A stretch of 61,961 nt of DNA, the filler included, from Globobulimina sp. (Eukaryota), in NCBI GenBank assembly GCA_003354225.1. It is 19 parts of 19 records of this genome, joined end to end, with 100 filler letters (N's around TTAATTAATTAA, not from the genome) between each part and the next. Parts side by side here need not be neighbours in the genome. Positions count along the whole stretch, not along the records: positions 49,002 to 52,166 come from PIVH01003534.1; 18 more parts are not named here. One strand, written 5' to 3'. Within the stretch, counting starts at the first letter, position 1; every line of letters starts with the position of its first letter. Positions 50,705 through 50,939 of the stretch are shown here, piece by piece. Made by a program: the position numbers and the translations under genes. The notes under the pieces were generated by a model. It saw nothing but the letters and a program-made list of their open reading frames with translations, had not been told where the DNA came from and made no database searches.

Positions 50705-50939
50705 GGTTCGGTATCTCAATGATAGAGAATGCGTCTACGATTTCGGTCGTGTCAGCAGGTTTACCTGCATCAATATGGTGGTTACTAACCAACTCTCTCT
50801 CTTTGGCCGTTAGGATCTCGCGGTTTCGAGATCCCCTGGAAATCCAAGGGTTTGCAGGCCGTAATTTGCCCGCATAATACAGTTCAACCAATGCAGGACC
50901 CAATTCGCAATGATGTAGGTTTGAATCCTACCCGAACCA
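50705..50939 (+). ncRNA. tRNA-like RNA with 163-nt structured insert in the anticodon loop (copy B; nominal anticodon ACG)
   Basis: Acceptor GGTTCGG/CCGAACC+A, D-arm TCTC-AATGATA-GAGA, stem TGCG/CGCA, T-arm GTAGG-TTTGAAT-CCTAC. TATA-rich sequence upstream and T8 at 50946-50953. Confidence 0.88.

Follow-up and report, generated by a model that had tools for sequence, protein, structure and literature searches.

What kind of gene is the 235-nt element that occupies a gap of 946 nt between two protein-coding genes of Globobulimina sp. (assembly GCA_003354225.1), and in which a complete tRNA frame is interrupted in the anticodon loop by a long insert? The original prediction took this element (copy B) and a second one (copy A) to be members of a new RNA family, in which the tRNA fold is used as the promoter and processing chassis for a conserved cargo RNA, and held that these were not ordinary tRNA-Arg genes. 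The window, that is, the entire stretch of 61,961 nucleotides that was analyzed, has a G+C content of 33% and is made up of about 19 contigs of about 3.2 kb joined by N spacers, so the two copies indeed come from unlinked contigs. The eukaryotic proteins encoded in the window are a BEACH-type solenoid, two tubulins, an MFS transporter and a penicillin-amidase-like protein. The tubulin encoded at 14818-16236 is a divergent beta-tubulin, with 50-62% identity to its best full-length matches, and the only protist named among its closest matches is the foraminiferan Ammonia sp.; this similarity fits a foraminiferan host but does not amount to proof.

On re-reading, everything that had been stated about the sequences of the two copies, namely their stems, loops, discriminator A73, the ACAA tetranucleotide and the T tracts, was found to be accurate. 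Copy B consists of a 5' half that comprises the 5' strand of the acceptor, the D arm, the 5' strand of the anticodon stem and the loop CU-ACG-A, and a 3' half that comprises the 3' strand of the anticodon stem, the variable loop AUGAU, the T arm, the 3' strand of the acceptor and A73 (Table). The stems of B are GGTTCGG/CCGAACC (acceptor), TCTC/GAGA (D) and TGCG/CGCA (anticodon, with U31.U39), and its 7-nt D-loop, AATGATA, and anticodon loop, CT-ACG-A, are accompanied by the T arm GTAGG-TTTGAAT-CCTAC. The corresponding stems of A are GACTCAG/CTGAGTC, GCTC/GAGC and TGTG/CACA (with U31.C39), the anticodon loop is CT-GCA-G, and the T arm is ATAGG-TTTGAAT-CCTAT; the D-loop of A equals the AATGATA of B extended by 12 AT-rich bases. 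In both copies, ACAA immediately precedes position +1.

Table. Features of the tRNA-shaped elements; positions are those of the window unless contig L001 or L002 is named.
Feature	Position	Strand	Basis or remark
Copy B, entire tRNA-shaped element, 235 nt	50705..50939	+	sequence; ARAGORN -i -ps95, exact coordinates
B 5' half, tRNA positions 1-37 in the 37/38 reading	50705..50740	+	36/36 bases identical to L001
H1 hairpin, loop UUCG	50736..50751	+	pair counts and RNAalifold
B insert (putative intron), 163 nt	50741..50903	+	length recomputed; register not fixed by sequence
H2 insert hairpin, GCAGG-UUUA-CCUGC	50755..50768	+	pair counts and RNAalifold
Conserved 20-mer, TATGGTGGTTACTAACCAAC	50774..50793	+	19/20 identical in L002a
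Variable insert centre, with palindromic hairpin GGATCTCG..CGAGATCC	50794..50873	+	B vs L001 alignment
B 3' half, positions 38-73	50904..50939	+	35/36 bases identical to L001
T8 run, Pol III terminator-like, 7 nt past A73	50946..50953	+	sequence
Copy A, diverged member of the family, 205 nt	10274..10478	-	leave-A-out model, E 7.7e-6; ARAGORN only at -ps85
A 5' half, 19-nt D-loop, loop CU-GCA-G	10431..10478	-	sequence
A insert, 121 nt	10310..10430	-	length recomputed
A 3' half, ending in A73	10274..10309	-	sequence
T11 run, 12 nt past the A discriminator	10251..10261	-	sequence
L001 copy, anticodon ACG, 180-nt insert	L001 675-926
L002a copy, anticodon GCG, 150-nt insert	L002 1238-1461
Partial second copy in L002, tail to tail with L002a	L002 1643-1710	-	ended by the contig end

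Do A and B belong together, and how large is the family? Public metagenome contigs were scanned for a degenerate T-arm pattern, and two of them, L001 and L002, turned out to contain two further full copies and one partial copy between them; the same pattern gave no matches in bacterial and archaeal genome contigs and five matches in viral contigs, all of which are unrelated phage contigs. An nhmmer model that was built from B, L001 and L002a, with A excluded, matches A from end to end (E 7.7e-6), the next match in the window has an E value of 1, and the ordinary tRNA-Pro is left unmatched. The end-to-end match implies that A and B form one family, beyond generic tRNA likeness, as had been proposed, and we conclude that A is a diverged paralogue of B's family in which the stems have been preserved via compensatory change. 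Searches of the window, L001 and L002 with 5', 3' and full-length nhmmer models found no copies beyond the four full and one partial. The exons of B and L001, which are recently duplicated copies, are identical in 71 of 72 positions and their untranscribed upstream flanks in 92%; the duplicated unit spans about 330-350 bp, 72 nt of which belong to the upstream flank. Across the paralogues, the anticodon is ACG (B and L001), GCG (L002a) or GCA (A), with A73 constant, and each of the four copies has a T run (T8, T8, T8 and T11) located 4-14 nt past A73, in agreement with the predicted Pol III layout.

The abundance of the family becomes apparent when contigs of four sequencing runs (X1, X2, X6 and X7) are mapped to the contig of B. 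The element is present in the contigs of three runs (X1, X2 and X6), the depth of X7 across B being 0. Run X1 is DNA-like: genes and spacers alike are covered evenly, at a depth of about 4.5-6, and no spliced joint is present; over 50698-50909, its summed depth reaches about 100, an approximately 20-fold increase, although summed depth is not equivalent to copy number. The X1 contigs depart from the reference at 50691-50697, 50901/50902 and 50963, one of the downstream flanks is that of L001, and other copies attach a B-type 3' half to different insert ends, hence the loose ends at 50901/50902. Together with L001 and L002, these divergent flanks and this depth show that there are many copies in different contexts, which bears out the expectation of a large family. 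Run X2 is cDNA-like: the upstream gene is joined across a GT..AG intron (50003->50107), and the depth over the spacer 50380-50697 is 0-0.11. The summed X2 depth over B is 196-226, compared with 11 and 77 for the two neighbouring mRNAs. The X2 contigs span both exon-insert borders (50713-50772 and 50855-50931) and, therefore, an insert-bearing RNA does exist; these contigs also depart from the reference at 50939, which is the discriminator. A cDNA end recurs at 50717, and may reflect either a modification stop or a cleavage. The joint 50740->50904 is not among the contig joints listed, and given that contigs seldom contain mature tRNAs, they are silent on splicing.

Standard annotation passes over these genes. 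When introns are disallowed, ARAGORN reports only a tRNA-Pro(CGG), at 16888-16960, in the window and misses both A and B. When introns are permitted, B is one of two calls in the 62-kb window at -ps95 (an insert of the same length is set at loop position 33), and A appears only at -ps85, as one among 34 calls in the window, so that taken alone, A is unconvincing. At the gathering threshold, an Rfam search of the whole window detects only the tRNA-Pro, at 16888-16959, and at permissive thresholds (E<=10 on 50650-51000; E<=1 on L001 and L002) only weak, unrelated matches appear. Thus, as far as Rfam at both thresholds is concerned, the family has no match, and among the specific candidates, a group I intron, tmRNA, snoRNA and known SINE RNAs all lack an Rfam match. 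ARAGORN finds no tmRNA in the window.

The fold was assessed by pair counts on the alignment of the four full copies (B, L001, L002a and A), two of which are near-identical. Across 32 pairs, or 127 cells, 96.1% are paired, and 12 of the 32 pairs are changed on both sides: three in the acceptor stem, one each in the D, anticodon and T stems, and three each in two helices, H1 and H2, that involve the insert and extend the covariation beyond the stems for which it had been claimed. When the 3' partners were slid by 1-3 columns as a control, 31-45% of the cells were paired with 0-2 pairs changed on both sides, and none of 500 shuffles reached the observed covariation value. With an alignment of just four sequences, of which two are near-identical, the counts are suggestive and do not amount to statistical proof. 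RNAalifold, run without a supplied structure, recovers the same six helices along with a small invariant helix in the conserved 20-mer. The cloverleaf stems of 7/4/5/5 bp are all present; the acceptor, D and T stems are fully paired in all four copies, and the anticodon stem is paired at 85%, with positions 31 and 39 unpaired in three of the four. In H1, all the cells of the six pairs are paired, the three both-side changes follow the anticodon as it shifts between ACG, GCG and GCA, and the loop is UUCG or UACG; in B, positions 50736-50741 (tRNA positions 33-37 and the first insert base) pair with 50746-50751 (insert bases 6-11). The anticodon is thus base-paired to the start of the insert. 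In H2, which has five pairs, 90% of the cells are paired; the stem is GCAGG/CCUGC in B and GAAAG/CUUUC in L002a, with three both-side changes, and both broken cells belong to A, in which three of the five pairs form.

The tRNA body carries the expected U8, A14, G18, U33, G53-C61, T54, U55 and A58. The elbow is a different matter: since the D-loops end in ..TGATA and the T loop is TTTGAAT, the pair G19-C56 is replaced by the isosteric A19-U56 in every full copy. The T loop TTTGAAT is found in all five copies (four full and one partial) and, therefore, C56 of the B-box consensus, an important position, is absent throughout. That the 20-mer GGTTACTAACC could be an intronic substitute for the B box is speculative, the consensus being matched only at GGTT..CC. 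Nor is the elbow peculiar to this family. The same A19/U56 combination is found in phage tRNAs (L003, L006 and L007, as well as L004, which is uncalled by ARAGORN), with a D-loop of the form ..TGA(A)TA.. and the T-loop TTTGAAT, the D-loop of L004 being the identical AATGATA. These phage tRNAs, which were retrieved because the search pattern demanded a TTTGAAT T arm, are short, intron-less, reside in viral contigs and show no wider similarity to the B family. The term A19-U56 is absent among the literature matches listed.

How much of the insert is conserved? The inserts of B and L002a have the 20-mer TATGGTGGTTACYAACCAAC in common (local alignment, z ~10), with 19 of the 20 positions conserved even though the exons of these copies are about 12% divergent. 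The 20-mer of B may form a small hairpin, UGGUU-ACU-AACCA, and RNAalifold predicts an invariant helix of 4 bp there; A retains only ..ATATG.. and TAACCAA of this segment. The block AAYCAATG is conserved near the 3' end of the insert. The covarying H2 and the conserved 20-mer suggest that the insert is under a constraint beyond that of mere removal. The similarity between the inserts of A and B is weak: local alignment of the A insert with the B-type inserts is not significant (for B, z ~1, with an equally high score in 80 of 500 shuffles), and only a global alignment with cheap gaps (z 3.5; 0 of 300 shuffles) reveals short blocks in colinear order. The insert centre behaves differently. Between B and L001, it is the least conserved segment (76% identity, with indels, vs 92% in the flank), it is unalignable between B and either L002a or A, and one copy, seen in both X1 and X2, is devoid of 50794-50850 (57 nt; joint 50793->50851). 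Because the centre of the insert is both the least conserved part and missing from some copies, it cannot be a conserved cargo; the cargo of the original prediction is thus unsupported, and the tests that were possible lend no support to a new class of cargo-carrying RNAs.

In our view, these elements are most likely tRNA-Arg-type genes whose introns are exceptionally long and partly structured and whose elbow pair is unusual. When the insert is removed between positions 37 and 38, all four copies acquire a 7-nt anticodon loop of the form C32-U33-NNN-R37-U38, and ARAGORN at default settings identifies three of the four resulting sequences as tRNA-Arg (acg, acg and gcg), so that the claim that these are not ordinary Arg genes is not supported. 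With its insert removed, A is called only at -ps85, a noise-level threshold, and in a shifted frame. The registers preferred by ARAGORN for the unspliced copies yield Trp-cca for B and L001 and Cys-gca for L002a. Most simply, the intron would be located at the canonical 37/38 site. No bulge-helix-bulge common to the four copies was found in 15 registers (-8 to +6 relative to 37/38). A register shifted by -2, in which all the anticodons become NCA (Cys-like), produces central pairs in 4/4, 3/4, 2/4 and 3/4, but these would form at the expense of part of the anticodon stem, and in three copies only 1/2 of the outer helix is paired; we rejected this register on account of the incomplete motif and the A73 discriminator. 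A tRNA-Cys requires U73, and a GCA anticodon with A73 makes a poor tRNA-Cys; the combination of GCA and A73 with a 19-nt D-loop makes A unlikely to be a normal decoder. The G34 of L002a would itself be odd, as Arg tRNAs with G34 are unusual in eukaryotes.

The T runs, the intergenic site, the dispersal of the copies, the pairing between anticodon and intron, and the higher conservation of the exons compared with the insert centre all fit a Pol III-transcribed tRNA family with an intron. We therefore give somewhat better than even chances to the hypothesis that B is a copy of a dispersed, multi-copy Pol III gene family of the tRNA-Arg(ACG) type with a very long intron in the anticodon loop. Under this hypothesis, Pol III would initiate a few bases before +1 and terminate at the T run. 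The precursor would then fold into a normal L-shaped body, in which the elbow pair A19-U56 takes the place of G19-C56, while the first 11 bases of the intron and the anticodon would together make a UNCG-capped hairpin that sequesters the latter. Further along the intron would come the second hairpin, the conserved 20-mer and, near the 3' end, AAYCAATG, with the centre being free to vary; these conserved modules may have a role of their own. Removal of the intron by the tRNA splicing endonuclease and ligase would yield a tRNA-Arg of 72-74 nt, which presumably could be aminoacylated.

The likeness to canonical intron-containing nuclear tRNA genes that are spliced by TSEN is extensive: a full cloverleaf, an insert compatible with 37/38, anticodon-intron pairing, dispersed multiple copies, T-run terminators, and exons that are more conserved than the centre of the intron. 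For eukaryotic pre-tRNAs, PMC10485636 describes intron bases that pair with the anticodon loop, and it calls the proximal pair, between position 32 and the third-last intron base, conserved and critical. In the 37/38 register, this 32:-3 pair is missing in all four copies of the present family, and H1 is a local hairpin built on the 5' end of the intron, unlike the 3'-proximal pairing of the textbook precursor. The Arg-type inserts, of 150, 163 and 180 nt, exceed the range of 6-133 nt that is quoted for eukaryotic tRNA introns in the available part of PMC4090602, and the accessible portion of PMC13578239 already refers to an algal tRNA intron of about 64 nt as 'unusually long'. The A19-U56 elbow is another difference, and splicing, established for the canonical genes, would be conjectural for this family. 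Our literature search, in a collection without most subscription journals, turned up no account of tRNA introns or of tRNA-like Pol III genes from Foraminifera or Rhizaria.

The missing 32:-3 pair, the long introns, the local H1 hairpin, the A19-U56 elbow, the drift of the anticodon, the D-loop of A, and the presence of H2 and the 20-mer keep two other readings alive. The original idea can be recast as a family of non-coding RNAs on a tRNA scaffold, whose product is an unspliced RNA of 205-250 nt or else the insert, excised as a stable linear or circular molecule; the tRNA body would serve as promoter, fold and processing handle, and H1, H2, the 20-mer and AAYCAATG would be the working parts. 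In favor of such a family, the insert-bearing RNA has a greater summed depth in X2 than either neighbouring mRNA, H2 covaries, the 20-mer persists despite the divergence of the exons, the canonical splicing pair is missing from every copy, the anticodon drifts under an unchanged A73, A retains every stem through compensation despite a D-loop that is foreign to ordinary tRNAs, and Rfam holds no matching family. Yet a never-spliced RNA would not need the 7-nt loop, U33 and the purine at 37 that emerge in all four copies upon removal of the insert, three of the four copies are tRNA-Arg for ARAGORN, the largest part of the insert varies and is in part dispensable, and the RNA level per gene must be modest, given that the summed depth pools many copies. 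The known RNAs of this kind are also imperfect models. The metazoan tricRNA genes resemble the B family in having a long tRNA intron with a potentially stable product and detectable RNA, but no back-spliced joint is listed among the contig joints here, a type of joint that contigs cannot exclude. The archaeal pre-tRNA-Trp intron, to which the original prediction appealed as a case of a functional RNA within a tRNA intron, contains nested box C/D RNA (in Trp introns of 65 nt, according to the available part of PMC4090602), and because the C box is absent from the B family (RUGAUGA in 0 of 4 copies, with no C/D boxes found, the D box being CUGA), the analogy fails; the shared bulge-helix-bulge is lacking as well, as is, even at permissive thresholds for B, an Rfam snoRNA match. 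On balance, we regard the scaffold as unlikely, if the least unlikely of the alternatives. It is also rather unlikely, albeit worth keeping in sight, that a genuine Arg-tRNA family has become a platform for long structured RNAs, such that the intron-bearing transcript or a stable excised intron is functional, with the anticodon-masking UNCG hairpin, the covarying second hairpin and the 20-mer as its conserved parts; it is similarly unlikely that, on such a platform, paralogues like A have left decoding while retaining the tRNA fold.

The other reading is that of an amplified tRNA-derived repeat, in which pseudogenes or a SINE-like unit stem from a single intron-bearing tRNA gene and are transcribed via its internal promoter, their function as tRNAs having become superfluous. 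The many copies with differing flanks, the duplication unit shared by B and L001 together with its upstream flank, the tail-to-tail pair in L002, the odd anticodons GCG and GCA, the 12-nt AT-rich D-loop insertion in one copy, and the departure from the B-box consensus in every T loop are all what such amplification could produce, and tRNA-derived SINEs likewise are Pol III-type, multi-copy and tRNA-related. In these elements, however, one does not find what the B family has, namely a T arm and a 3' acceptor strand that follow the insert and close the full tRNA fold; the element stops at the discriminator and the T run and is without a tRNA-unrelated 3' body or tail. The flanks contain no target-site duplications: no direct repeats abut the element, and the longest ones, of 6-8 nt, are AT-rich and away from its ends. 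Neutral decay would not be expected to leave 96% of the cells paired when 12 of the 32 pairs have both sides changed. The exons, identical in 71 of 72 positions between B and L001 next to an insert centre at 76%, also speak against this reading. A SINE, which had been put forward as the main alternative, is accordingly a weak one, and we consider amplified repeats in general to be a doubtful explanation, slightly less plausible than the scaffold or the platform. Finally, chance likeness or an assembly artefact could be invoked for A, since ARAGORN detects it only with a setting at which the window yields 34 calls, but the independent copies in other contigs (L001 and L002), the occurrence of the element in contigs of three of the four runs, the match of the leave-A-out model to A and the slid-partner controls of covariation make this extremely improbable.

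If the genes of the tRNA-Arg type considered here are working ones, they contain introns of 150-180 nt, beyond the range of 6-133 nt that the available part of PMC4090602 quotes for eukaryotic nuclear tRNA introns, and do without the only intron feature that is thought to be generally required for tRNA splicing in eukaryotes. Were this the case, either the substrate range of the splicing endonuclease would be wider than assumed or there would be a lineage-specific mode of recognition. Because ARAGORN at default settings and Rfam at the gathering threshold both missed these genes, the annotation of tRNAs in such genomes is probably incomplete. Finally, the A19-U56 elbow, along with a variant B box that still permits transcription, would represent a natural experiment on the recognition of the tRNA elbow and on the tolerance of the Pol III promoter.

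The A19-U56 elbow pair that characterizes the Globobulimina family of tRNA-Arg-like genes with a long insert is also found in phage tRNAs. In the phage contigs L003, L004, L006 and L007, all from the T-arm pattern scan, a D-loop ending in TGA(A)TA accompanies the T loop TTTGAAT, giving the same A19/U56 combination as in the family, and at the L004 locus the D-loop, AATGATA, is identical to that of copy B of the family. The tRNA Pro-CGG of the window has a normal G18G19 and the T loop TTCGATT, and therefore G19-C56 is kept in the ordinary tRNAs of this organism. This tRNA shares a contig with the second of two divergent tubulin genes, which is separated from the first by a contig joint at ~16239-16338, so that each gene lies on its own, neighbouring contig of the window.

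Locations of the phage-contig tRNAs, the tubulin and proline tRNA genes, and the family copies of the metagenome contig L002
Feature	Location	Strand	Remark
tRNA Ala-tgc	L003:10924-10998		ARAGORN
tRNA Thr-tgt	L006:4331-4401	-	ARAGORN
tRNA Ala-tgc	L007:2005-2079		ARAGORN
tRNA-like locus	L004 ~6150-6215	-	ARAGORN makes no call
Divergent tubulin gene 1	window 14818-16236	+	
tRNA Pro-CGG	window 16888-16960	+	sole canonical tRNA of the window
Divergent tubulin gene 2	window 16996-18399	-	
Family copy 1	L002:1238-1461	+	
Family copy 2	L002:1643-1710	-	

Copy B of the family is flanked by two protein-coding units. Upstream, near the 3' end of an ABCC-type transporter gene, a GT..AG intron of 103 nt (window 50004-50106) is joined out in the cDNA-like run X2 and in the further runs X6 and X7 and is unjoined in the DNA-like run X1; hence, the stop of the listed transporter ORF (49076-50047) falls inside an intron. 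Within the same gene, a contig of X6 and X7 has 157 nt (window 49632-49790) swapped for 151 other letters, a sequence difference that points to a diverged segment or an alternative exon in related organisms. Downstream, the RNA contig of an unnamed gene (ORF from 50994) starts at window 50970, with an adapter just before, 31 nt past the tRNA discriminator of B and 17 nt past its T run. The spacing between this Pol II unit and the putative Pol III unit of B is very tight.

Inside B, the Illumina adapter is directly joined to window 50717 (tRNA position 13) in contigs of X2 and X6, runs of different studies. This recurrent cDNA end, within the D stem, may reflect either stopping of the reverse transcriptase or cleavage of the RNA at this point.

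The two L002 copies are arranged tail-to-tail, ~180 nt apart, with 91% identity across the last 92 nt, including ~20 nt past the discriminator. An X2 contig matches B across the 5' half and H1, the hairpin that pairs the anticodon with the insert start, and continues into unrelated sequence beyond 50750. There seems to be another subfamily that has the exon and the anticodon-masking hairpin in common with B and carries a different insert.
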